Assembly (NCBI GenBank): GCA_003482885.1
Contig: DMXN01000032.1
Location: forward strand, 13,129-77,128
Length of the DNA stretch: 64,000 nt
Direction: 5' to 3'
Source: Candidatus Moraniibacteriota bacterium
Lineage (GTDB): Bacteria > Patescibacteriota > Minisyncoccia > Moranbacterales > UBA2206
This document shows positions 15,703 through 58,497 of this stretch, piece by piece; within the stretch, counting starts at the first letter, position 1, and each line of letters begins with the position of its first letter. Below the pieces are notes generated by a model. It ran no database searches. It was not told where the DNA came from and was given only the letters and a program-made list of their open reading frames with translations. The position numbers and the translations under genes were made by a program.

Positions 15703-16323
15703 TCATATTGTCCATCGGTTATATGGCTGCGGATCATATGGATTATAAGGTATGGCAATTATGGTTTGCACTTTTGCCTTAGGCTTTTCCACTAAGATTG
15801 TTGCTGTCCACTCCAAGAGCGTTCTTTTAAACTCCTTAAAACCGCCTGCGTTTGGTTTGGCGGTTTTTATATCAAACAAAAATAATTCCCCAGAAGAATT
15901 TTCCAATAAAACATCAACTTTTGTCGGTTTAATTTTTCTAAATTCCCCCTGTCGCGCAACTTTTCTAATAATTTCGATTTCTTTAATTTTATTTGGCAAT
16001 AATCTTGCGGTTGTCAAATCATCAATAATTTTTTGAATTGCAATTTGAGCATTTGCGCTTATTCTATCGCCCGCGATAGCTTGTGATTCTGCCCTTTTAA
16101 ATTTATTTTTAGCCAATAACAAGGCAACTGGCTCAAAAATACTTGTTCCAAAATTTGTATTAAGCGAGTGAATAAAGGAATACAACGCTAAACGATCCTT
16201 GCCTAAAAGTCTTGTGTGAAATGGCATTGTAGCTGGTTCAGGTTTATAATTTTGAAATTTATGCCTAATAGCGCTTTTTAAAAAAAATTCTATACCATCG
16301 ATTTGTTGCTTCAATAAACTCAT
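15703..16323 (-). CDS. Putative type II restriction endonuclease (PD-(D/E)xK-like, DIK motif)
   Basis: 206 aa whose start overlaps the MTase stop by 4 nt. KVDVLLENSSGELFLFDIKTAK gives D…(E/D)xK spacing like the EcoRV DIK catalytic motif. No further homology is recognisable by eye. Confidence 0.4.
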   Translation of the reverse strand: MSLLKQQIDGIEFFLKSAIRHKFQNYKPEPATMPFHTRLLGKDRLALYSFIHSLNTNFGTSIFEPVALLLAKNKFKRAESQAIAGDRISANAQIAIQKIIDDLTTARLLPNKIKEIEIIRKVARQGEFRKIKPTKVDVLLENSSGELFLFDIKTAKPNAGGFKEFKRTLLEWTATILVEKPKAKVQTIIAIPYNPYDPQPYNRWTI

Positions 16324-17912
16324 ACATTTTTAAAATGAAAAATTATTTCTGAATAAGGACATTTATCTCTTTCAGTGCGATTGAGCACTGGTCTTTTATA
16401 TTGATTGATAATCTGCATACCTGCATTTTTCGCAATTTGCGGATATAAATTCCATTTGTCATTAGCTACCAAAAAAATATCAAAATTGCTTACAAGAAAT
16501 TTTTTTGAATTTATCAAAACTTGCGATATACCTTCAATATAAGATTTTTTTGCATCTATTCCCTGACCTTTATATAAAGGACCGATTTCTAATTCATCTT
16601 TTCTCTTGAAACCAAAAAGATCATACGCATAAGCATGTTGTTCATGATAATCTATTTGACCGACATAAGGAGGCGATGAGAAAATACCTTTAATTTTCTG
16701 CTTTTCAAACAGCTTATAGAAATCTTTATTTCTTGCTTTTATTTCCTTTGAAATATCCACAGATCTTGAGTCGCCAGTAATTGATGCCCAGCAAGCGCCA
16801 TTTTTTAATTTCTGAAACTCTCTAATCCTAAAAATTGTATCATTTGCATAACGACTAAACCAATACTTAATCGAAAAAAGAGGCTTGCAAATTTTTTTAT
16901 GCTTCCAGCAATAATAGGTTTCAATCTGCGGATTTTTGAGTGTTGCTAAATCCGAATGAGTTGTTGCCCGACAGGAACGAATTGTTCGACTTAAAATAAT
17001 CGCTAGAACTCTTTTGTTTTTTTCATCTTTTATTTTTTTGATTTGGCTAAAAGCAAAATTGATTTCTTTTCGTATGTTTTTAATATACCATTTATCGAGA
17101 AAAGTTTTGCTGTTTTTTTGTTCGAGCTCTATGTTATATTTTGAAATTAGTTTTTTATAGATACTCAAAAATTCTTTTTCTTTCTCAATCGCGTATTTAT
17201 TTTCATCAACTTCTCGCTTATATACCTTTCTTTTAAATTCTGGCGAAGGAAAATTTTTATTGTTAAATTTAGCAAGTTCAAAATAAAGTTCTTTTTCAAA
17301 TTCTTCTATTTTTTCATCAGTTTCAAATTTAGTAATTTTTATATTAATATTTGCTACTTCCTTAGCTAACGAATCTAAATTATAATTAAACAACTTTATG
17401 TCTGTCATCATGCAATTAAACCGAGAAATATCAACTCCAATTGAATGAATGCCAAGCTCATTTGCTTGCACTAAGATTGTGCCTGATCCTGAAAAAGGAT
17501 CCAAAATAATATCTCCTTTTTTAAAAAAAACATTCTGTTTAAAATCATCCGTGTGATTATCAATAAAATACTCCACTAACTGCGGTATGAATTTACCTTT
17601 ATATGGATGCAACCTATGAACATGTTTTGTAGTATCCTTTTCTCGTAAATTGTCAAAAGATAATTCCCAATTTAAATCATCCCCGAGTTTCTTTTTCCAT
17701 TCAGCTTCTCTTGTGCCATTAAATGATTGGTAATATTGTTGCAAGTCTTTGATATTTATTTGAGCAGACCCATTTTCTCCATATTTTTTAACTTTTCCAT
17801 ATTGTATGAGATAAGAAATATTTGACTCGCTAATATTTCGACCTAAAAAAGAACTTGCCCAATCGCATGCTTCCTTCAGCGTTAATAATTGTCCAATGAT
17901 TGCTAATCCCAT
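16320..17912 (-). CDS. DNA N6-adenine/N4-cytosine methyltransferase with permuted motif order
   Basis: A beta-class-like block HPYKGKFIPQLVEYFI…GDIILDPFSGSGTILVQANELGIHSIGVDIS (motif I) lies at aa ~100-170. Motif IV FSSPPYVGQIDY lies at aa ~410. Confidence 0.75.
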   Translation of the reverse strand: MGLAIIGQLLTLKEACDWASSFLGRNISESNISYLIQYGKVKKYGENGSAQINIKDLQQYYQSFNGTREAEWKKKLGDDLNWELSFDNLREKDTTKHVHRLHPYKGKFIPQLVEYFIDNHTDDFKQNVFFKKGDIILDPFSGSGTILVQANELGIHSIGVDISRFNCMMTDIKLFNYNLDSLAKEVANINIKITKFETDEKIEEFEKELYFELAKFNNKNFPSPEFKRKVYKREVDENKYAIEKEKEFLSIYKKLISKYNIELEQKNSKTFLDKWYIKNIRKEINFAFSQIKKIKDEKNKRVLAIILSRTIRSCRATTHSDLATLKNPQIETYYCWKHKKICKPLFSIKYWFSRYANDTIFRIREFQKLKNGACWASITGDSRSVDISKEIKARNKDFYKLFEKQKIKGIFSSPPYVGQIDYHEQHAYAYDLFGFKRKDELEIGPLYKGQGIDAKKSYIEGISQVLINSKKFLVSNFDIFLVANDKWNLYPQIAKNAGMQIINQYKRPVLNRTERDKCPYSEIIFHFKNV

Positions 17913-39344: not shown

Positions 39345-40175
39345 TTATAGCTTCGCATTGATTAGATTCTTTAAAATATTTTTCATATTTTTGCTGACAT
39401 TTTTTATATAATTCGCATCATCAATAAATGCTTCCAAATCCAATTCGATGCTTTTGGTGTCGGCTTTTTTAATATTGTCCAAAAGTATTTTCTTCAAGTC
39501 TTCTAAATTTTTCACATTTTCAATGCAAGAAATATTCGGAATAATTTCTTTTTCCAAATACCACATCAAATCAAAATAATCACGACCTTTAACCATCACT
39601 AAATCATTACCGTTTTTATCCGTTTTTTTCCACTGCCGGTTAAGAACCGCTCGAATTTTTGTCGCCATCAAAGTCGGCAAATCAAATGATTTTATCAAAA
39701 TAGACTTATTATATTTGAATAACGGCAAAATTTCGGTTTTATATTTTTTGCAAAAATCGAATCCGGAAAAAATTTCCACTTTCAAAAACAATAAGTCCGA
39801 CTCGCTTTTTAAGGACAAACCGATTTCATTGAGAATTGGAAATTTCAAATACACTCGAAATTTCTGCGCTGTTGTTTTGACCTGAAAACTATATTTGGCT
39901 TTAAAGAAACTTTCCAAATCACTTTTCAATTCAGTAATATCAACTTCTTTTTTCAAATCGACAAAATCCAAATCCTCGGAAAGCCGCGGCAATTTATGGC
40001 ACTGCGCAAGACACGACCCGCCATAAAAAACCAAATCGCTGTAACGCGGATGGGAATAAATAAAATCCAAAACCAAAATCTGCAAATAATCTTTGAGCAA
40101 ATTACGGTTGTACAGCGCGCTTTTCGAAGATGAATTCTGCAATAAATTTTTTAACTCTTCTTTAAGTCTTTCCAT
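39345..40175 (-). CDS. AbiEii-family nucleotidyltransferase toxin, pair #3
   Basis: LVFYGGSCLAQCHKLPRLSEDLDFVDLKK. Confidence 0.75.
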   Translation of the reverse strand: MERLKEELKNLLQNSSSKSALYNRNLLKDYLQILVLDFIYSHPRYSDLVFYGGSCLAQCHKLPRLSEDLDFVDLKKEVDITELKSDLESFFKAKYSFQVKTTAQKFRVYLKFPILNEIGLSLKSESDLLFLKVEIFSGFDFCKKYKTEILPLFKYNKSILIKSFDLPTLMATKIRAVLNRQWKKTDKNGNDLVMVKGRDYFDLMWYLEKEIIPNISCIENVKNLEDLKKILLDNIKKADTKSIELDLEAFIDDANYIKNVSKNMKNILKNLINAKL

Positions 40176-40819
40176 AGTTTTATTAAAATATTATAAAGCT
40201 CGCGCATTTTTTCTGATTTTTCCAGTTCAATATATTTTTTTAATTCGCTGATGTCATTGCTTTTTAATTCGCTTAAATTCAAACGCAATTCTTTGATCGC
40301 ACTTTCGGATAATAACATTTTTTTTCGAAAATACAAAAAATCAAAAAGCGCTTTGGCGACAGTCGCTTTTTTAAATGAAAAATTATTTTCTTTTAAAATC
40401 TTAAAACCGCAAAATAATTCAGGCTTAATGCTATGGTAATAAAAATTGTCTAAATTATTTGTCAACAGCTTTGTCTTTTTAAGAGCAACTGCCGTATAAT
40501 TTTTCGGCATTTCCGTTAAAAGATTATTTTCGGACAAAATATAATCCATGCTCAAATAGCTCGGTTCATAGATTATTCCGGAAACAAATTCTTCGTATCC
40601 GGTAAATAGATTTTTTCTTTTAATATCCTCTATATAATCAGCAGAAACATACATGCCTTTTTTAAGGCGAATGATTTTTCCGTTTTTTGAAAAACGCGAA
40701 AGCAGAACACGCAAAAAATGCCGGTTTTTTTCAATAGAAAAAACACTCTCCAGTGTAAAATACGGCAAAGTCTTCAAATGGTTTATTATATTGGCTGTTT
40801 TCGATATGTCATTTCTCAT
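40151..40819 (-). CDS. AbiEi-family antitoxin, pair #3
   Basis: …KGMYVSADY…YEPSYLSMDYILSENNLLTE; overlaps the toxin start by 25 nt. Confidence 0.7.
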   Translation of the reverse strand: MRNDISKTANIINHLKTLPYFTLESVFSIEKNRHFLRVLLSRFSKNGKIIRLKKGMYVSADYIEDIKRKNLFTGYEEFVSGIIYEPSYLSMDYILSENNLLTEMPKNYTAVALKKTKLLTNNLDNFYYHSIKPELFCGFKILKENNFSFKKATVAKALFDFLYFRKKMLLSESAIKELRLNLSELKSNDISELKKYIELEKSEKMRELYNILIKLWKDLKKS

Positions 40820-40952: not shown

Positions 40953-41576
40953 TTATTCCAAAATCCCGTCCAAATTTACATCATAAAGAATTTGTTCTTG
41001 GACAAGGCGATAATTCAAAATTTCGTTTTCTGAAAACCAAATTGGGATTTCTTTTTCCGCTTCTTCCGTGTTTCCCGAAGCATGGATCAGATTGCGAATA
41101 CTTCTTTGATCAAGATCAGCCATTTGATAAGTATCCAAAGTGAAATCGCCCCGAATTGTTCCGATATCGGACGACAATGGCTCCGTTCCTCCGGTAATTT
41201 TTCTGACCAATCCCGCGGCTTGATTGCCTTGCCAGATCATCGCGATAACCGGACCAGAACTTAAATATTTGGCGTTTGATTTCATAATGGCAATGCCGTT
41301 TTCTTTGAACGAGGCAAAGGGCGATTTTAGTCCCTTTTTTTCATAAGCCGCCGCCGCTTTTCTGCCCACCTCTTCCAACCATGCGTCACCGCCTACTTCA
41401 TAATAATGCTTGGTAGCCATTTCTTCTGTCGCAATAAGCATTTTCAATGCCACCATTTTCAAACCGACTCGCTCGTACCTTTTAATAATTTCCCCGATTA
41501 AAGTTCTCTGCACTCCGTCCGGTTTGATAATAACCAGCGTCCTCTCCTTGCTTGGATGATTTTTTTTGTCCGTCAT
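40953..41576 (-). CDS. ndk: Nucleoside diphosphate kinase with an internal insertion and a C-terminal extension
   Basis: ERTLVIIKPDGVQRTLIGEIIKRYERVGLKMVALKM and NLIHASGNTEEAEKEI (catalytic His). About 207 aa against the usual ~140; a ~30-aa insert follows the HYYEV region. Confidence 0.8.
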   Translation of the reverse strand: MTDKKNHPSKERTLVIIKPDGVQRTLIGEIIKRYERVGLKMVALKMLIATEEMATKHYYEVGGDAWLEEVGRKAAAAYEKKGLKSPFASFKENGIAIMKSNAKYLSSGPVIAMIWQGNQAAGLVRKITGGTEPLSSDIGTIRGDFTLDTYQMADLDQRSIRNLIHASGNTEEAEKEIPIWFSENEILNYRLVQEQILYDVNLDGILE

Positions 41577-41687
41577 TGTTTTGATAAAATTAAAAATTAT
41601 TACTTTAATAAAAAACGGCATAAACCGTTTTCAGCCAATTTCAGTTTAGCAAAATGAGGAAAATAAATCAAACCGTTTCGCGGTTCT

Positions 41688-42894: not shown

Positions 42895-42946
42895 TATATG
42901 ATGGCATCGTATAGTTTGTCAAGAATCTATACGATGCCATCATATA
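42895..42946. repeat. Perfect 20-bp inverted repeat with a 12-nt loop
   Basis: tatatgatggcatcgtatag-tttgtcaagaat-ctatacgatgccatcatata. It has no flanking T-run, so it is not a canonical terminator. Confidence 0.5.
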
Positions 42947-43140
42947 AACAAAAGTAGAAATCTTATATTGGTATCAGCTAATGTTTCCTTTTCTTTTTTC
43001 CGACAGCAATCGGAATTGTTTAAAAAAAAATTTAAAAAATCTTTTTCCGTTTTGGGCGAAGGGCAGAGGGGTTAGGAGTGAATGCCCAAAATCCAAAACA
43101 CAATATTTCTTTTCAAACAAACAGGCAAAAAGGAAGGGGT

Positions 43141-44661
43141 TTAAGGGGAAGGAATTTTTGCCTTTTTGTTTTCGTTCATCAATTTGCTCATTTTTATTTT
43201 TGGGTTTATCCCTAATTCAAAACATTTTCTTGCCCACGATTCGATCTTTTGTTTTAGAATTATAGAATTAATTCCAGATATTTTTTTAGGTAAATTCTTG
43301 TTTTGTATAACTAACCAAATGCAGTAATTTTTAAAATTAGTGTCTACTTTTTTTATATTTGCTTTTTTGCTAATCAGTTCTAATGTGTTATTTGCTTGAT
43401 CACAGACATAACCTAATTTTTGTGCAGTTCCAAATTTTACGGCATAAACAGTTTCACCTTTTTTTGAATCCCACGCCTCAATCAGTGTCCCAGCTTTAAC
43501 TTTAATGATTGAAAAATTTTTATCAGCATTTGTATACCCGTGTTTTTTTAGATTTTCATTAAAATCATCTTCTACCCCAGTAATTTCAAGTAAATCATTT
43601 TCCACTTCTTCAAGATCAATACTATCTATGTATTCGTTTAACTGATCTATGTAATCCTCATTAAATTTCATCCATTTACCTTGTGTTAGAAGTACATTCT
43701 GATCATCTATTATGTAATCAATAGATTCCTTTACGGTTTTTGAGAAAGGCTTTGCATCTTCTTTGATGATGTGAACTCTGATATTTAGGATTTGCTCTTT
43801 TGATATAGAATGCGTTAATATAAAAGCCTTTAATTTGTCGATTGAGAGATCTTCAAATTCACCCGAAGCATAACTGTCTAAGGAAAATTTATATTTTTCT
43901 TGTCCAGAGAAAATAAAATCAATTCCAATAAGTTCGTGACTATTTGAAGTAAAATCTGTGCCTTCCCTTGCAGAGATAATTTCTTCTACTAATTTATTCT
44001 CATACCCTTCTGTTATGGGGGTTGCATCAAGGATTACAGTTCTTGGTAGTTTAAATAATTCAGGTAACTCATAAGCTTTGATTATTGATTCTAAAAATAC
44101 CGCCAGTGTTTCTTTTTCGATTATCGGACTCAACAATGAAGAAGAGCCAAATTTGCCAGATTTACCAAAATCTTTTATAAAATCTTTCGAAATAGATGAT
44201 TGTAAATAATCAATAGATTCCCCACTTTCGATGTCTAGTTGGCTGTTTTTTGTATAGCTCTTTATTTCTTTTTTCTTTTTTCCCGCGAATTTTTTTGACG
44301 ATTTTTGTCTAATATCTTTCTGGTTTGCAATTCTTTTGGCTATATGAATACCGAAATCATGGTCACAAAATTGGCGTAGATAAAAATGTGATTTTCCATA
44401 GCTTAATGCGAAACAATATTTTTCATTTTTCCAAATATAGGCACAATAAAATATTTTATTTTCAGGTTTATCCCCAGTAAAGAAATCTTTATATGTAGTT
44501 ACCCATGGAATTTGAATCGGATCTATATCTTTAGAGAAATAAAAATCAGCCTTCCATCCATTTTGTTCGGTGGAGTTAATATTTTTAAGTCCCAATAATT
44601 CAAATTTATCTTTTAAATTAGCGACTTTATCCTTTGGAATTTTGAATATATTTAGCTTCAT
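43141..44661 (-). CDS. Hypothetical 506-aa protein linked to the type IIS R-M cluster (possible nuclease/accessory component)
   Basis: No motif recognisable by eye. It starts 2 nt after the stop of the beta-class MTase gene upstream. Acidic and Lys-rich. Confidence 0.35.
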   Translation of the reverse strand: MKLNIFKIPKDKVANLKDKFELLGLKNINSTEQNGWKADFYFSKDIDPIQIPWVTTYKDFFTGDKPENKIFYCAYIWKNEKYCFALSYGKSHFYLRQFCDHDFGIHIAKRIANQKDIRQKSSKKFAGKKKKEIKSYTKNSQLDIESGESIDYLQSSISKDFIKDFGKSGKFGSSSLLSPIIEKETLAVFLESIIKAYELPELFKLPRTVILDATPITEGYENKLVEEIISAREGTDFTSNSHELIGIDFIFSGQEKYKFSLDSYASGEFEDLSIDKLKAFILTHSISKEQILNIRVHIIKEDAKPFSKTVKESIDYIIDDQNVLLTQGKWMKFNEDYIDQLNEYIDSIDLEEVENDLLEITGVEDDFNENLKKHGYTNADKNFSIIKVKAGTLIEAWDSKKGETVYAVKFGTAQKLGYVCDQANNTLELISKKANIKKVDTNFKNYCIWLVIQNKNLPKKISGINSIILKQKIESWARKCFELGINPKIKMSKLMNENKKAKIPSP

Positions 44662-44662
44662 G

Positions 44663-45445
44663 TTAAATGTTTGGCGTTAATCTTTTTTTAGCAATCCCTA
44701 CATATTGCTTTTCTTTTTCAATCCCAATCCAATCCCGACCAAATTTTTTAGCTACAAAAGCTGTAGTTCCGCTTCCTAAGAATGGATCCAAAATAATGTC
44801 GCCCTTGCTGGAGCTTGCTAAAATTATTCTTTTTAGCATTTCTTCTGGTTTTTGAGTTGGATGCAACGCCTTACCGTCTTTGCCTCGTACTCTTTCTTTG
44901 CCTTGAACTAATGGTAATTCCCAAAAGTCACGCATTTGTTTTTCGGTTCCATCTTTTTGTTTTTCAGGATTTATTTCTTTAATTTTTTTATAATTAAAAG
45001 TCCAGCCACTACCTTTGACAGCCCAGATTACAAATTCTGTTGCGTGAGTAAACACCCTCCTTGTCATATTCGGCATGGCGTTCGTTTTATACCAAGTAAT
45101 GATGTTATTTACTTTGAAATCAAGCTGTTTTAGTACAATCATTACTTCTCCAATGTTGTGATAACTGCATGCGATGTAGATTGATCCTGTGTCTTTTAAA
45201 ACTTTGTGGCAAGCTCCGATCCATTTTCTTGTAAACTGTAAATATTCAGGCGCTGTCATTTTGTCCCAATGTTCATTTACCATATACCAATCTCCACCAG
45301 TTTTGCTACCTTGCCATTTTAAACCATTGCCAGATAAATTATATGGAGGATCAGCAAAGACAAGATCAATAGAACTCTTATCAATCTTTGTATTGAGTAT
45401 GCTTATGCAATCGTCGTTGTAGATAATATTTTTTTTCATACTCAT
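44663..45445 (-). CDS. Beta-class DNA methyltransferase (N6-adenine or N4-cytosine)
   Basis: Motif IV DLVFADPPYNLSGNG is N-terminal. Motif I DIILDPFLGSGTTAFVAKKFGRDWIGIE is C-terminal. Confidence 0.8.
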   Translation of the reverse strand: MSMKKNIIYNDDCISILNTKIDKSSIDLVFADPPYNLSGNGLKWQGSKTGGDWYMVNEHWDKMTAPEYLQFTRKWIGACHKVLKDTGSIYIACSYHNIGEVMIVLKQLDFKVNNIITWYKTNAMPNMTRRVFTHATEFVIWAVKGSGWTFNYKKIKEINPEKQKDGTEKQMRDFWELPLVQGKERVRGKDGKALHPTQKPEEMLKRIILASSSKGDIILDPFLGSGTTAFVAKKFGRDWIGIEKEKQYVGIAKKRLTPNI

Positions 45446-45448
45446 AGG

Positions 45449-47266
45449 TTAAAAATTTAGACTTTTTTGCCATGACGAAATGGCATTTGGGATATTCCTA
45501 AGCCAGCCATCTGAATCGCTAAAAGAATTTGATGAATTGATTATTTCATCGTATAGGCGAGCAATTTCGCTATGTTTTAAAAATTTATTCTCTGTTTTTA
45601 TCTGTACGAGTACTTTCAAAAGAGACACGAAATTGTTTATTGATAAAGGAATTATTTTTTGTTTATTACCCTCGTATTCATATTTTATGGCCGTCCAAAA
45701 GGTATTTATAGTATCTCTGTGCATTTGGGGAGCAATAAACAAGCAATATGTAGTTTTGTCACTATGTTTATTTTCAAAATCTCTTAAATGTCTCATCACT
45801 GGTTGCCCCTCGTTATACCACTGATCTCTGCCCGTTAGCATTGTTGCCTCACAAATAGCATTAAAACTTTGATAAAAACACTCAATATCTGGCGTGTTTG
45901 CTGGTGCTGTAAATGTTGGTTCGTTATCATCGCCGACTGGATAGTTTGGCTGTATTTTTAATGCATCGTTCAGGGCATTCAGACCCAATGATGATAACTT
46001 TTCAAGCAGTATTGGTCTGTCTTCAGATTCAAAAATATTTTCAAATTCTTGAATGTAGGATTTAATTTGTTCTGTGTCTTGTGACTTTTGATGATTTTGT
46101 TTGTCTTGTAGCTCTCTTCGATAGTTTCGCAGTTCATTGATAAATTTTTTCAATCTATCTTCATCTAGTTTTTGATAATCCAAAAATACTTTTGGCGTTA
46201 TCCTCGTTTCTCGTTCAAATAACTTTATATCTTCAAGCAATTTTATGGCAATTTCAATAAGCTTTTCTTTAGTTTCCCATGGTAATTTTGGCTCAGAGAT
46301 GTCAGAAATATAGTCTAAGTATTTCTCTTTTGATTCAAATGTCTTTGATTGAGCATTATCAAAATCCAACAAAGCATCAATTTCAACCGATCTTCTCGGC
46401 TCCAGATCAATATAAAAACCACCACCCCGTATATAAATATAGCGAGTTAGGCGGAAGTATCTGATAGCGTTGTCTCCATAGTCTTTGAGATTTTTTAGTA
46501 GCTTTTGAATTTCTGTAGTATTTGGTTTTCCAATAAATTCCCGTGCGAAAGTTTTTTTATATTTGTCTCGGATTGTTTTTTGTTCCTGCTTCGGTTTGTC
46601 TTTAAGGTCTTTTCGTAATGCGATAATTTTTTCAGAATAAATTTCTATATCTTCATAATTAACAAGGGTTGGACAAAATAAAGAAAATTCTTCCTTACTT
46701 ATTCCTTTTTCTTTTTCTCCTGATTTCCTAGATTTTTTATTTACTTCCCGAATAAGATGAAGCACGCCGACAAATGGTTCTATGTTGTATCCATCTTCAA
46801 GTTTATAGTCATCACTATCAGGGTTTGGGATTTGCCACTTGATAAAACTTCTAAAGAATATTTCACCAAGATCAAAATCGTCTTTTAGAAATAGTTTTCC
46901 TAAGCTGGTTATACAGATTTTTTCATCTTTAATGACAGCAAGCCCAAATTTTTTAAGAGGGTTTATTGATTGCCGCCCTCTCATTGAAGGATCTTTATAG
47001 TTTTTAGCATTAAAAATCGTTTCGGCTTGTTCAAAGGTAATTGTTTTTGTTTGATCGTCAATTAAATCAATTTGTTCATAAGATAATCCATTGTAAAATT
47101 GGTTGCTTCCATAGCCGTAAACCCTTTCTTTTATCAAAAGAATTTGATATTTTCTCTGACTTTCTAAATCCCACTTACAATTTTCAAGCTGTTTTAAAAC
47201 AATTAAAAAATCTCTCAATCTTTCAGGATTTCTTAGTGTTGTAGTAATTGACCAAGGTTTTTTCAT
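45449..47266 (-). CDS. AlwI/BstNBI/MlyI-family type IIS restriction (or nicking) endonuclease
   Basis: N-terminal WSITTTLRNPERL…, mid-protein IEPFVGVLHLIREVNKK and C-terminal YCLFIAPQMH…IIPLSINNFVSLLKV parallel the conserved blocks of Nt.BstNBI/AlwI-family enzymes; 605 aa. Confidence 0.65.
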   Translation of the reverse strand: MKKPWSITTTLRNPERLRDFLIVLKQLENCKWDLESQRKYQILLIKERVYGYGSNQFYNGLSYEQIDLIDDQTKTITFEQAETIFNAKNYKDPSMRGRQSINPLKKFGLAVIKDEKICITSLGKLFLKDDFDLGEIFFRSFIKWQIPNPDSDDYKLEDGYNIEPFVGVLHLIREVNKKSRKSGEKEKGISKEEFSLFCPTLVNYEDIEIYSEKIIALRKDLKDKPKQEQKTIRDKYKKTFAREFIGKPNTTEIQKLLKNLKDYGDNAIRYFRLTRYIYIRGGGFYIDLEPRRSVEIDALLDFDNAQSKTFESKEKYLDYISDISEPKLPWETKEKLIEIAIKLLEDIKLFERETRITPKVFLDYQKLDEDRLKKFINELRNYRRELQDKQNHQKSQDTEQIKSYIQEFENIFESEDRPILLEKLSSLGLNALNDALKIQPNYPVGDDNEPTFTAPANTPDIECFYQSFNAICEATMLTGRDQWYNEGQPVMRHLRDFENKHSDKTTYCLFIAPQMHRDTINTFWTAIKYEYEGNKQKIIPLSINNFVSLLKVLVQIKTENKFLKHSEIARLYDEIINSSNSFSDSDGWLRNIPNAISSWQKSLNF

Positions 47267-47268
47267 AA

Positions 47269-49077
47269 TTATTTTGTTACATTACAATAAAAAATTCGTT
47301 CGGCGTTTCCATCGCCATTGCTTTTCCCAGCAGTGAACGCCTTATAATCTCTTTCAAAAATTTCTACTTCACCTTTGTTTTTTAATATTCGTAAAATATC
47401 ATTGTCGTTTATTCTAGCATTTGAGCGCCCATCTTTTGAATCCCCAGTATTATTATAAGACAATAATATATGTTTACAATTTACATTTTTAATTAAGTCC
47501 TCAAATGCCTGTGTAGCATTTTTAAGGCAATAGGAGCTTTTTATGTGGGAGCGATCCATTTTTTTTGCTACTCCTTCAACATTAGGTTTTTTCCATTCAG
47601 CTAAATTTTCCAGTAAATGATAGGCATCTGAATATTGACGCGAGTTATAGGGCGGATCTATGTATAAAACATCGCAAACAATTTTTCTAATCAAGATATT
47701 TGCGTCTTCTTTGTAAATATCGTTATTTCCGTTATTTAAGTGGTCAATATCTGGGGCTAAAAGTTTTACTGGCTGTAGCATGTCTAAATCTTTACGAAAA
47801 GCGTCATAATGTCCGACGGTATTTGCAACCTTGTCAACGGCATAAATTAAGGAACAGATGAGAATGTTTTTTTCTTCTTCCGTTTCGGCAATTCTTTCTA
47901 TTTCTTCACGGATTGCCCCAATCTTTCTAGCATTTTCTAGTGAAAAATAAGTATTACCAAAGTATTTTGAAAAATAATTATCTTGATCAGTTTTCAAATT
48001 ATTGAGAATATCAATTTTATCCGCAATGTTCTGAATAGGTGAATTTGTACCAAGAAACGTTTTTAGACAAACATAATTTGTAAAAAGGAAATCATTAGAA
48101 ATAATTTTTATTTCTGGTTTATTAAATCTTTCTCCGACAACACCTGTCCCTGCGAAAATATCACAAAATGATTTTATTCCGTTGCATTTTTCTGCGACAA
48201 TATCTTCAATAAATCCGAGCAGTTTATATTTATTACCTAAGTATCTTCTATTTTGCAATTGGAAGGTATTGTTTTGAGTTTTTGAAAAGTGAAAATAGGG
48301 TTTGTCAATTTTTTGTATGGTCGTTACCTCGTAGGCTAGTTTTTCAATTTCAAGTAAGGCGAAAAGAGTACCCTGTATTCCGTCAGCGACATAATCAAAC
48401 CCCTCTTTTTTCTTTTTTAACTTTTCGTAAAAACTATAATGATTATTTTCAGAAACAATAATGAAATCAATAACGGGAATACCCATTATTTCTCCCGCTT
48501 GTGCAATTTTTTCAACAACTTCAATATCTTTTTCGCTTGGCGAAGAATCACCTGAAGGGTGATTGTGAATTAGAATAACGCTGGCGGCGTTTAATTCCGT
48601 AGCTGGGTAGAAAATTTCTCTTGGGTGTAGTAATGCCTTATCTAATAGTCCGATGCTAACGACTTCCTTTTTGAGTAGGGAATTTCTAGCATTAAGATAC
48701 AAACAGACCAGATGTTCTTTTTTCTTATCCCTTAAATCGTAAGTAAGAGACAGAACATCTTGGGAATTTTTGATAATAATCTCGTTTGATTTTTCATCCG
48801 CATAAAATCTTTTTACCAACGAAATTGCGGAAGTAATTTGTAGTGCTTTAGCTTGACCAATACCCGAAATCTCTAAAAGATCATCAACGGTTATATTCAA
48901 AAAGTTTTTACCGAATTTTTTAATAATACTCTCCGAAAGTTGCCTAACATTTTTACCTTTTATACCACTGCCTAAAAGAATCGCCAAAAGATCACTTTTT
49001 GAAAGTGCGTCAGCCCCTTTTTTTAGAAATTTTTCTCTCGGGCGATCAATTTTTGGTATATCCTTAATTTTTGGCAT
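47269..49077 (-). CDS. Fusion protein: RadC-like JAB/MPN domain (N-terminal) plus Dam-family (alpha-class, D12) N6-adenine DNA methyltransferase (C-terminal)
   Basis: N-terminal MPKIKDIPKIDRPREKFLKKGADALSKSDLLAILLGSGIKGKNV…ILIHNHPSGDSSPSEKDI is the RadC JAMM motif. The C-terminus reads RRYLGNKYKLL…FCDIFAGTGVVG…ISND…VLYIDPPYNS, the Dam motifs. Confidence 0.7.
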   Translation of the reverse strand: MPKIKDIPKIDRPREKFLKKGADALSKSDLLAILLGSGIKGKNVRQLSESIIKKFGKNFLNITVDDLLEISGIGQAKALQITSAISLVKRFYADEKSNEIIIKNSQDVLSLTYDLRDKKKEHLVCLYLNARNSLLKKEVVSIGLLDKALLHPREIFYPATELNAASVILIHNHPSGDSSPSEKDIEVVEKIAQAGEIMGIPVIDFIIVSENNHYSFYEKLKKKKEGFDYVADGIQGTLFALLEIEKLAYEVTTIQKIDKPYFHFSKTQNNTFQLQNRRYLGNKYKLLGFIEDIVAEKCNGIKSFCDIFAGTGVVGERFNKPEIKIISNDFLFTNYVCLKTFLGTNSPIQNIADKIDILNNLKTDQDNYFSKYFGNTYFSLENARKIGAIREEIERIAETEEEKNILICSLIYAVDKVANTVGHYDAFRKDLDMLQPVKLLAPDIDHLNNGNNDIYKEDANILIRKIVCDVLYIDPPYNSRQYSDAYHLLENLAEWKKPNVEGVAKKMDRSHIKSSYCLKNATQAFEDLIKNVNCKHILLSYNNTGDSKDGRSNARINDNDILRILKNKGEVEIFERDYKAFTAGKSNGDGNAERIFYCNVTK

Positions 49078-49184
49078 AAATTATTTTCGTAGCGGAGAGG
49101 CGAAAACACCTTTTTGATTTGCCATAAAGTTATAATTTATTTTTACCTCTTCATTCTACCATTTTTAAATCTTCATGCCAACGC

Positions 49185-49212
49185 AAAAAAGCCCTGCGGA
49201 AGCAGGGCTTTT
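49185..49212 (-). terminator. recA terminator
   Basis: gccctgc-ggaa-gcagggc is a 7-bp stem with a GNRA-like loop, followed on the minus strand by a T-run. Confidence 0.5.
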
Positions 49213-57366: not shown

Positions 57367-58497
57367 TTACAAAACAAAATTAAAATAATTATCTTTTGCA
57401 ATATTCATAAATTCCGAACCCAAATAATTTTTCAAAAATTCTTTCGGCAACTTAGCCTTTCCATTCCACTTAAATTCAAACGCGCTTAATTTTCCGCCTT
57501 CTTCTTCGATATAGTCAATTTCTTTTTGATCATAAGTGCGCCAAAAATATTTATTGCAACCTCTTTGCTTATGAGAGTTGGCTTTCAATCTTTCAATGAT
57601 CATTAAATTTTCCCAAAGTGCTCCGACATCATTGCGCAAAGATAGATTATTGAAATTTTGAATCAAACTATTTCGCACTCCCAAATCATAGAAATATATT
57701 TTCATCGATTTGGAAATTTCCTTGCGCAAATTACGGCTGAATGCTCTTAGAACAAAAATTATAAATGATTGTTCCAAAATATCAATATACTTTTGCACTG
57801 TTATGCGACTGACGCCAAGATTTTGCGCCAGCTCATTGTAAGAAACCTCGCTTCCCATTTGCAATGCCAAAAGTTTCAACAAATTTTCAATGATTCCGGA
57901 TTTTTTAACTCCTTCAAAGGCTAAGATATCTTTGTATAAATAATTTGAAACAATTTCATTTAATCTTTCTTTGGCAATTTCCTCGCTTTCTGCCAAAAAA
58001 ACTTCCGGATACACTCCAAAGCGCATAATATTTTCAAGTTTGGCATCAATTTCAACACGACTAAACTTCCGATCAAGCTCGGCAAGAGAAAAGGGATACA
58101 GCATAAAACGAATAGCTCTTCCGGTCATCGGTTCGCTGATTTTATTTGCCAATTCAAAACTGGAAGATCCGGTGGCAATTATTTGAATTTCCGGACAATG
58201 ATCAACTAGAATTTTCAAAATAACTCCGGCATTGGGAAGTTTTTGCATTTCGTCCAGAACTGCAATTTTATATTTCCCCAAAAACATCCGCAGTTTTTCC
58301 ACTTCAGGAATTTCAATATTCCGCCTGACCGAAAGCAACTCGCAATCAAAATAATAGGCATCTTCTCCATATTGACTGATTATATTTTTCGCCAATGTTG
58401 TCTTGCCAGTTTGCCTAGCTCCATAAATAATGATTGCTTTTTTTTTGAAAAGCCGGCTTTCAATCTGTTTTTGCGCTATTCTTGGTATATTTTGCAT
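57367..58497 (-). CDS. AAA+ ATPase (AAA_14 plus DUF4143 type), second paralogue
   Basis: KAIIIYGARQTGKTTLAKNII is the Walker A motif; 376 aa. Confidence 0.75.
   Translation of the reverse strand: MQNIPRIAQKQIESRLFKKKAIIIYGARQTGKTTLAKNIISQYGEDAYYFDCELLSVRRNIEIPEVEKLRMFLGKYKIAVLDEMQKLPNAGVILKILVDHCPEIQIIATGSSSFELANKISEPMTGRAIRFMLYPFSLAELDRKFSRVEIDAKLENIMRFGVYPEVFLAESEEIAKERLNEIVSNYLYKDILAFEGVKKSGIIENLLKLLALQMGSEVSYNELAQNLGVSRITVQKYIDILEQSFIIFVLRAFSRNLRKEISKSMKIYFYDLGVRNSLIQNFNNLSLRNDVGALWENLMIIERLKANSHKQRGCNKYFWRTYDQKEIDYIEEEGGKLSAFEFKWNGKAKLPKEFLKNYLGSEFMNIAKDNYFNFVL

Follow-up and report, generated by a model that had tools for sequence, protein, structure and literature searches.

A modular type IIS restriction-modification cassette with a RadC-methyltransferase head and an optional DUF6119 cargo gene in Candidatus Moraniibacteriota

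Does a gene that directly follows a type IIS restriction-modification (R-M) operon belong to the R-M system, or does it only travel with it? This question is raised by four minus-strand genes at positions 43141-49077 of a 64,000-nucleotide stretch of DNA from Candidatus Moraniibacteriota bacterium (contig DMXN01000032.1), here called the window. An earlier note, made from the sequence alone, had described a type IIS R-M cluster in which an AlwI/BstNBI-family nuclease is accompanied by two methyltransferases (MTases) of different classes, and searches against Pfam, PADLOC (PADLOC-DB 2.0), NCBIfam and PDB sequences agree with this description. The R-M core adds a member to a well-known family, and GenBank already annotates it accordingly. 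Overlooked in the earlier reading were the fusion of one methylase to RadC, the family of the fourth protein, and the fact that the cassette is mobile and modular. In combination, the observations described below indicate that the locus is probably a horizontally mobile four-gene operon, in which genes 1 to 3 form the type IIS R-M system and gene 4, encoding a 506-amino-acid (aa) protein of the DUF6119/TIGR04141 family, is an autonomous defence effector and not an R-M subunit.

The restriction-modification core and its RadC fusion

All four open reading frames (ORFs) given in the earlier note are present, with lengths of 602, 605, 260 and 506 aa, and the motifs quoted from them (WSITTTLRNPER, IEPFVGVLHLI, YCLFIAPQ...IIPLSIN and DPPY...DPFLGSGTT) were all found. 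In order of transcription and as assigned from ORFs and profile matches, the genes encode a fusion of RadC with a D12 N6-methyladenine (m6A) MTase (47269-49077, 602 aa), an AlwI-family type IIS endonuclease (45449-47266, 605 aa), a CcrM/HinfI-like beta-class N6-adenine MTase without the CcrM C-terminal domain (44663-45445, 260 aa), and the DUF6119/TIGR04141 protein, an optional cargo gene (43141-44661, 506 aa). The corresponding GenBank entries are HAI74005.1, HAI74006.1, an unnamed entry and HAI74008.1. Intergenic spacing is 1-3 nucleotides (nt), with 1 nt rather than the reported 2 nt between the stop codon of the beta-class MTase and the start of the 506-aa protein. The G+C content of the four genes is 0.31-0.35, compared with 0.40-0.43 on the recA/ftsK side.

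Assignment of the 605-aa protein to the AlwI family was borne out by its match to RE_AlwI (PF09491; 6.5e-80, 269.7 bits, cut-off 23.1), which spans profile positions 4-441 of 441, and by the NCBI label of an identical protein, 'AlwI family type II restriction endonuclease'. The PADLOC model REase_II, 'Type II nicking endonuclease' (PDLC03393), matches at 3e-133 over positions 2-622 of 624. The best solved relative is the large subunit of N.BspD6I (4.5e-35, 124 bits), and the small catalytic subunit of BspD6I matches residues 432-592 (6.6e-9). The protein has an N-terminal recognition region followed by a single C-terminal catalytic domain (approximately residues 430-600), in which D460, E473 and E486 align in HMMER with the catalytic PD...E...E residues of N.BspD6I.

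Within the AlwI family, two modes of cleavage have been described. MlyI and AlwI cut as homodimers, while BstNBI/BspD6I is a heterodimer whose large subunit alone nicks and whose small subunit, encoded by a neighbouring gene, cuts the second strand (PMC3017599). A phmmer search of the ORFs of at least 60 aa in the 64-kb window revealed no small-subunit paralogue of the catalytic domain (next best E = 0.17), and the operon has no spare ORF for a BspD6I-type small subunit of about 190 aa. As there is neither room for a small subunit in the operon nor a catalytic paralogue in 64 kb, the homodimeric mode of MlyI and AlwI is favoured. The N-terminal region would recognise the unmethylated site, the single PD-(D/E)xK-type domain (D460/E473/E486) would cut a few bases to one side, and double-strand cleavage would most likely need transient dimerisation of monomers, as in MlyI, AlwI and FokI.

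The system resembles MlyI, PleI and AlwI in its Pfam family (PF09491), in the combination of an N-terminal recognition region with one C-terminal catalytic domain, in the adenine methylases alongside, and in that homodimeric cleavage would be expected from the absence of a small-subunit gene (PMC3017599). Unlike those systems, for which the available excerpts of the reviews mention no such domain, it carries RadC on its first methylase, and the similarity of its endonuclease to the only solved relative, N.BspD6I, is low (124 bits). With BstNBI/BspD6I (GAGTC 4/6), it shares the best match to a solved structure, the retained PD...E...E residues, the PADLOC 'nicking endonuclease' model and a CcrM/HinfI-like methylase that suits a GAGTC-type site. 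It differs from BstNBI/BspD6I in having no small-subunit ORF in the operon or the window and in that a methylase gene follows that of the endonuclease.

The alpha-class Dam-like MTase described in the earlier note as lying on the upstream side of the endonuclease does contain a D12 domain, but this is only the C-terminal half of the 602-aa protein, the N-terminal part of which is RadC. Residues 4-219 (approximately 48421-49068) form a complete RadC (UPF0758_N/HhH plus JAB; PF20582 at 1.3e-22 and PF04002 at 8.2e-38) that scores above the equivalog cut-offs of NF000642 (218.4, cut-off 180) and TIGR00608 (211, cut-off 133.85). After a linker, residues ~271-601 (approximately 47272-48267) form a D12/alpha-class MTase (PF02086; 3.4e-32, 112.6 bits, cut-off 22), and the PADLOC model MTase_II (PDLC03373) matches the fusion at 3.9e-114. 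Identity as a Dam orthologue was rejected, with the MTase domain scoring 24.8 against the Dam equivalog TIGR00571, far under the cut-off of 114.85. Among 20 fusions drawn from both of the cassette types described in the next section, the JAMM residues E154, H171, H173, S181 and D184 are invariant, as are the S-adenosylmethionine motif DIFAGTG (306-312) and DPPY (474-477).

Two GenBank records, both of the same metagenome-assembled genome, differ on this ORF, which is a 602-aa 'hypothetical protein' in HAI74005.1 and a 405-aa 'DNA methyltransferase' in HAT75083.1. The shorter record, together with the fact that RadC is normally a stand-alone, housekeeping-type protein, would fit a fusion that is not functional, being either an artefact of assembly or annotation or an internal methylase start with an unrelated host RadC upstream. 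This is exceedingly improbable, given an uninterrupted ORF of 602 codons from its ATG, the invariance of the catalytic residues of both domains, and a second, divergent radC nearby in some hosts (L054/L055). Furthermore, more than 120 distinct 90%-identity clusters match the fusion at 75-96% identity, and all of them are ~600 aa in length with the same two domains. In nearly all of 80 metagenome loci related to the fusion, whatever their neighbours, the shared DNA begins 10 nt 5' of the RadC ATG. As the 405-aa start falls inside the JAB domain and would cut into it, this call is regarded as a start-site miscall that hides the fusion. Conserved, and with its metal site intact, the RadC module belongs to the cassette and is not the radC of the host.

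Few bacterial proteins that still lack an agreed function are as widespread as RadC. Contextual analyses, in the excerpts available, propose a nucleic-acid-processing or DNA-binding role, and list fusions with HhH, ArdC, DnaG primase and DinG helicase as well as polyvalent proteins of conjugative elements (PMC3239186; PMC5512222). Like these RadC fusions, the present one is found on a mobile element and joins a DNA-acting enzyme to a JAB domain of the RadC type whose metal site is intact. It differs in its partner, a type IIS modification methylase, and in serving as a 5' module common to two R-M cores; a fusion of RadC to an R-M methylase is not listed in those excerpts (PMC3239186; PMC5512222). 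In the operon, the RadC module may have DNA as its substrate, or it may process or regulate the methylase. A strictly conserved, intact RadC on a type IIS methylase offers a concrete, testable setting for this protein, with DNA processing, methylase regulation and self-processing as candidate roles.

The second methylase, the 260-aa protein, matches N6_N4_Mtase (PF01555) at 8.8e-64. Its best PDB match is CcrM (6pbd; 1.8e-62, 214 bits), with similarity in the 50% range, and other beta-class enzymes (DpnA, MboIIA, RsrI) score at most 113 bits. It is a CcrM-like catalytic core and not CcrM itself. A CcrM (GANTC) orthologue was rejected as its identity, with the equivalog cut-off missed (NF050803; 260.5 bits, cut-off 830, profile positions 3-248 of 350) and the C-terminal DNA-binding domain absent.

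The endonuclease gene is thus flanked by MTase genes of two classes (D12 alpha and N6_N4 beta). Both predicted N6-adenine MTases would protect host copies of an asymmetric site, and it is plausible that each serves one strand, although, in principle, one CcrM-like enzyme with GANTC specificity might suffice for both strands of GAGTC. A GAGTC-like recognition site is plausible because a CcrM/HinfI-like methylase is combined here with similarity to BspD6I.

Several points weigh against this picture of the core. The best PADLOC model for the endonuclease is labelled 'nicking endonuclease', which keeps a pure nicking-only enzyme in play as a less likely alternative to transient dimerisation. RadC in general has no accepted function (PMC5512222; PMC3239186). 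The recognition sequence is a guess, and avoidance of GAGTC is weak. Within the window, GAGTC/GACTC is only mildly rarer than expected (26 observed vs 39.8, z -2.2), and GGATC shows no depletion. In DNA next to the cassettes (326 kb for type A, 219 kb for type B), the GAGTC ratios were 0.86 and 0.91, respectively, and did not discriminate between the types. The strongest type A-specific depletion was that of CTCAG, which is not known as the site of any AlwI-family enzyme. Identification of the site by oligonucleotide avoidance was dropped, as it did not separate types A and B.

The most under-represented 5-mers in the window are CCWGG (7 vs 33 expected), GCWGC (41 vs 72) and CCSGG (43 vs 75), all far more depleted than GAGTC, which points to other restriction systems in the lineage, past or present. 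Flanking DNA of type A and type B cassettes alike is also poor in GCWGC and CCWGG. A minus-strand ORF of 530 aa at 16320-17912 has a weak match to a beta-class methylase (phmmer, 1.9e-5) and may encode another DNA methylase in the window.

Cassette types and the cargo slot

Typing of the genes at the 80 metagenome loci with phmmer revealed two kinds of cassette with a common head. In type A, as in the window, the RadC-D12 fusion is followed by the 605-aa AlwI-family enzyme and the beta-class MTase. In type B, it is followed by a 301-aa D12 methylase and a 505-aa AlwI-family enzyme. No earlier description was found of two AlwI-type cassettes headed by a conserved RadC-MTase fusion, and this is considered new. 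Between the fusion in the window (type A) and that of the type B locus L001, identity is 89-91% in the RadC part, 60% in the linker and 48% in the MTase domain. In blastn comparisons, the DNA shared by nearly all loci begins abruptly at window position 49086-49091, and the similarity of type B loci to the window ends inside the fusion gene, at ~48137-48340. The host radC was considered as an insertion target and rejected, since the shared DNA starts just 5' of radC and the flanking genes vary by locus.

None of the other loci has recA or AAA_14 neighbours like those of the window. Large serine recombinases, tyrosine integrases and tRNA genes are found instead in the flanks of other cassette copies. 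Cluster members with more than 90% identity occur in Moranbacteria, WWE3/Katanobacteria, Elusimicrobia and 'Infernicultor', which indicates that the cassette has spread recently across phyla. With near-identical copies in different phyla, and with restriction cores and cargo that are swappable between conserved ends, the cassette illustrates how the tiny-genome bacteria of the candidate phyla radiation (CPR) share immunity.

In 13 loci, mostly of type B, a 282-aa DUF4357/RAMA protein is encoded directly before the RadC-MTase gene and ends 3 nt upstream of it (L064, L070, L092, L095, L096, L098, L099, L109, L110, L112, L120, L121 and L124). In L079 and L081, DUF4357/RAMA follows the cassette, and the window's copy has none. 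RAMA stands for 'restriction enzyme adenine methylase associated'.

The position behind the cassette is variable. Taking as slot occupant the first co-directional ORF past the last R-M gene, approximately 55 loci could be evaluated. Type A slots hold AAA_13 (6), DUF6119 (2), DUF4357 (2), HerA (1) and other genes (15), or none (3), with no entry for OLD; type B slots hold OLD (6), DUF6119 (4), HerA (3), AAA_13 (1) and other genes (10), or none (2), with no entry for DUF4357. By Pfam, the contents include OLD (AAA_15 plus TOPRIM), AAA_13, HerA/DUF87, DUF4357/RAMA, GmrSD, Shedu SduA, SIR2_2, SMC_N/AAA_23, HATPase_c_3, an M78 peptidase and a UvrD helicase. The slot is a defence-gene hotspot. DUF6119 occupies it in six of the ~55 evaluable sister cassettes, namely in type A loci L061 and L078 (plus the window, L005 and L010) and in type B loci L103, L106, L107 and L109 (plus L001-3, L007 and L008). 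The window's DUF6119 protein is 86% identical to the copy in type B L001, despite the different R-M cores.

In the complete Moraniibacteriota genome CP064994.1 (type A, L010:8791-9980), ~1.2 kb with minus-strand ORFs of 211 and 128 aa lies between the beta-class MTase gene and the DUF6119 gene, which is without its first ~40 codons. The cargo gene was apparently disrupted here by an insertion.

On its distal side, the slot is bounded by a conserved non-coding right-end element of ~200 nt (42976-43194, minus strand; 77-87% identity by blastn), which takes in the final ~50 nt of the DUF6119 ORF together with intergenic DNA downstream. Two hairpins form part of it, hairpin 1 at ~43123-43165 and hairpin 2, partly degenerate in the window, at ~43055-43095. 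They have stems of 12-17 bp, in which some changes are compensatory, and conserved C-rich loops (...CCCCTTAAACCCCTT... and ...CACCCCTAACCCCTC...). RNA folding of the element gave z-scores of -6.7 (L113) and -2.8 (the window, with its degenerate hairpin 2).

As revealed by blastn, the element recurs in the same orientation at the distal ends of islands with unrelated cargo. Copies were found in L049 (14601-14783), L051 (15296-15496), L060 (7188-7334), L083, L088, L093, L101, L102, L112, L113 (7402-7542), L115 (10564-10674) and L127 (15154-15320). Exact cores are restricted to cassette-bearing loci and are always co-oriented with the cassette. The element includes the ends of cargo ORFs: both the DUF6119 ORF of the window and the AAA_13 ORF of L060 stop within hairpin 1, which encodes the C-terminal tail ...KKAKIPSP of the two proteins. 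In L096 and L099, the islands have copies of hairpin 1 in inverted orientation on their flanks. Rfam gave no credible match for the element, which may act in termination or stabilisation, or as a site of recombination. No earlier description was found of a cargo slot bounded by a conserved hairpin element, or of DUF6119 as its recurrent occupant, and both are likewise considered new.

The DUF6119 protein and its possible roles

The earlier note found no recognisable motif in the 506-aa protein. Profile searches place it in DUF6119 (PF19614; 5.9e-22, 78.4 bits, cut-off 27) and TIGR04141, a 'sporadically distributed protein' (45.5 bits, cut-off 35). In a set of 1.84 billion proteins, the family accounts for 661 representatives (E ≤ 0.001), which with few exceptions are 490-560 aa in length. 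Searches of PDB sequences with profiles of the full alignment and of the C-terminal half revealed nothing meaningful, and in the literature searched, DUF6119/TIGR04141 receives just three incidental mentions, none on function. A phage origin was rejected, with no PHROG and no IMG/VR relative.

Beyond the cassettes, 42 genome loci of the wider family were compared; in most of them DUF6119 stands alone, and apart from R-M adjacency no neighbour is conserved. Three actinomycete copies directly follow, and are co-directional with, type I hsdR-hsdS-hsdM operons in Solwaraspora (L015:3290-11545), Kribbella (L024:4556-11494) and Micromonospora (L130:212-8515), so that the family is associated with more than one type of R-M system. 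In Hahella, the gene is part of an island that also carries resolvases and Gabija-like OLD and UvrD genes, in Actinoplanes it sits between resolvase genes, and a distant copy on a Bacillus cereus megaplasmid is found near an AIPR gene and a DEAD-box helicase.

A known parallel is the appending of defence genes to R-M loci, as with PrrC and RloC at type I R-M systems. Here, likewise, a stand-alone effector gene lies co-directionally behind an R-M operon, the sister cassettes hold AAA_13 (the PrrC/RloC-type ATPase family), OLD, Shedu, GmrSD and SIR2 genes at the same position, and DUF6119 is also found behind type I R-M in actinomycetes. The difference is that DUF6119, a candidate effector, is absent from PADLOC 2.0, in which no family matches the protein at E ≤ 0.01.

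Only nine residues are invariant in an alignment of the family reaching 21% identity: W53, S174, P206, W330, E364, E395, D398, K409 and Q422. Among close relatives (at least 44% identity), the most conserved stretch is residues ~116-150 (IRQKSSKKFAGKKKKEIKSYTKNSQLDIESGES; window 44212-44316). This segment is strongly basic (IRQKSSKKFAGKKKKEIKSY...ESGES) and predicted to be disordered, with a predicted local distance difference test (pLDDT) score of 33-39 in the AlphaFold2 (AF2) model, and it may be a nucleic-acid-binding arm that becomes ordered on its substrate. The full-length model has a pLDDT of 76 and a predicted template modelling (pTM) score of 0.54. A Foldseek search of the full model against the PDB gave no match at E ≤ 0.001, with a CdiA-CT DNase as the best match (E = 0.066). 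In the C-terminal half, the model weakly resembles a restriction-endonuclease-like fold. The names listed in this weak fold evidence are CdiA-CT DNases, HamA, BglII, PfoI, BstEII, BstYI, BamHI and OkrAI, and also SfsA, NucS, LlaBIII, CinB, XisH, N.BspD6I and FokI.

The N-terminal part is predicted to be nucleic-acid-binding and the C-terminal domain to be restriction-endonuclease-like. The arrangement D398...x-V-K409 together with E364/E395 fits a variant PD-(D/E)xK site, in which the usual acidic position is Ala407, such that another position would have to supply the second acid. DUF6119 is proposed to be an autonomous nuclease effector, and as such it would act in defence through a C-terminal domain that uses E364, E395, D398, K409 and Q422.

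For the 506-aa protein, the earlier note had offered two readings, a further nuclease or specificity subunit belonging to the R-M system, or an unrelated defence gene riding with it. The evidence favours the latter, with DUF6119 as cargo, because it occurs in a minority of related cassettes (about one in eight), is replaced by unrelated genes or by none in the rest, accompanies two different AlwI-type cores as well as type I R-M systems, and is solitary in most genomes. That it is integral to the restriction enzyme, either as a second-strand nuclease analogous to the small subunit of BspD6I or as a specificity subunit, is accordingly very improbable; a phmmer comparison of the window's ORFs also found no sequence similarity between it and the AlwI catalytic domain. 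A service to the mobile element itself is another conceivable role, for example as a nuclease or recombination factor that moves cargo at the double-hairpin right end. This is quite improbable, as the right-end element is also present in islands without DUF6119, the actinomycete loci have DUF6119 without the element, and the protein has no conserved partnership with any recombinase.

More weight is carried by the suggestion that DUF6119 is a modification-dependent, type IV-like enzyme, in which an N-terminal reader of modified foreign DNA and a C-terminal nuclease would complement the methylation-sensitive type IIS system. This special case of an autonomous effector would suit a sporadic, mostly solitary single polypeptide with a uniform length of ~500 aa, and in L049 the slot is occupied by GmrSD, a genuine type IV enzyme. 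In addition, a C-terminal PD-(D/E)xK-like domain behind N-terminal beta-rich domains recalls the MspJI/Mrr-type layout. This role is plausible but, on balance, rather unlikely. The wider reading of an autonomous effector can be taken further, with DUF6119/TIGR04141 as a new family of single-gene anti-phage or anti-plasmid defence nucleases, and the cassette as a mobile 'defence-island seed', bookended by the RadC-MTase 5' module and the hairpin 3' element, in which restriction specificities and cargo recombine among CPR bacteria and their neighbours. This proposal is a tentative one, somewhat less likely than not to hold. Being rare and uniform, with an invariant set of acidic residues and a lysine, and occurring at the position otherwise held by Shedu, GmrSD, SIR2 and OLD, DUF6119 is nominated as a new defence gene that is testable as a single gene.

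Flanking features of the operon

The operon is flanked on its 5' side by recA (50320-49232) and on its 3' side by an AAA_14/DUF4143 ATPase gene (42866-41688). A terminator hairpin of textbook form follows the recA stop codon (~49183-49210). Directly past it, and 76 nt 5' of the RadC-MTase ATG, lies a putative promoter, TTGGCA-17-TAGAAT with a TG element (49153-49181, minus strand; 10/12 matches in a consensus scan). This promoter-like site falls outside the DNA block shared by the cassettes, the left edge of which is at ~49086-49091.

Other defence-type genes are found near the operon. The AAA_14/DUF4143 ATPase corresponds to the PADLOC candidate PDC-S01 (4.9e-71), and a second AAA_14 paralogue is present at 57367-58497. 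Past the R-M operon, there is also an AbiEi/AbiEii pair (40151-40819 and 39345-40175), separated from the AAA_14 ATPase gene by the housekeeping gene ndk (40953-41621). Just upstream of the AAA_14/DUF4143 start (42866), a perfect 19-bp inverted repeat, ATATGATGGCATCGTATAG-N12-CTATACGATGCCATCATAT (42898-42947, minus strand), encloses the TTGACA -35 box of a promoter match of 11/12, and looks like an operator over the promoter of this gene.

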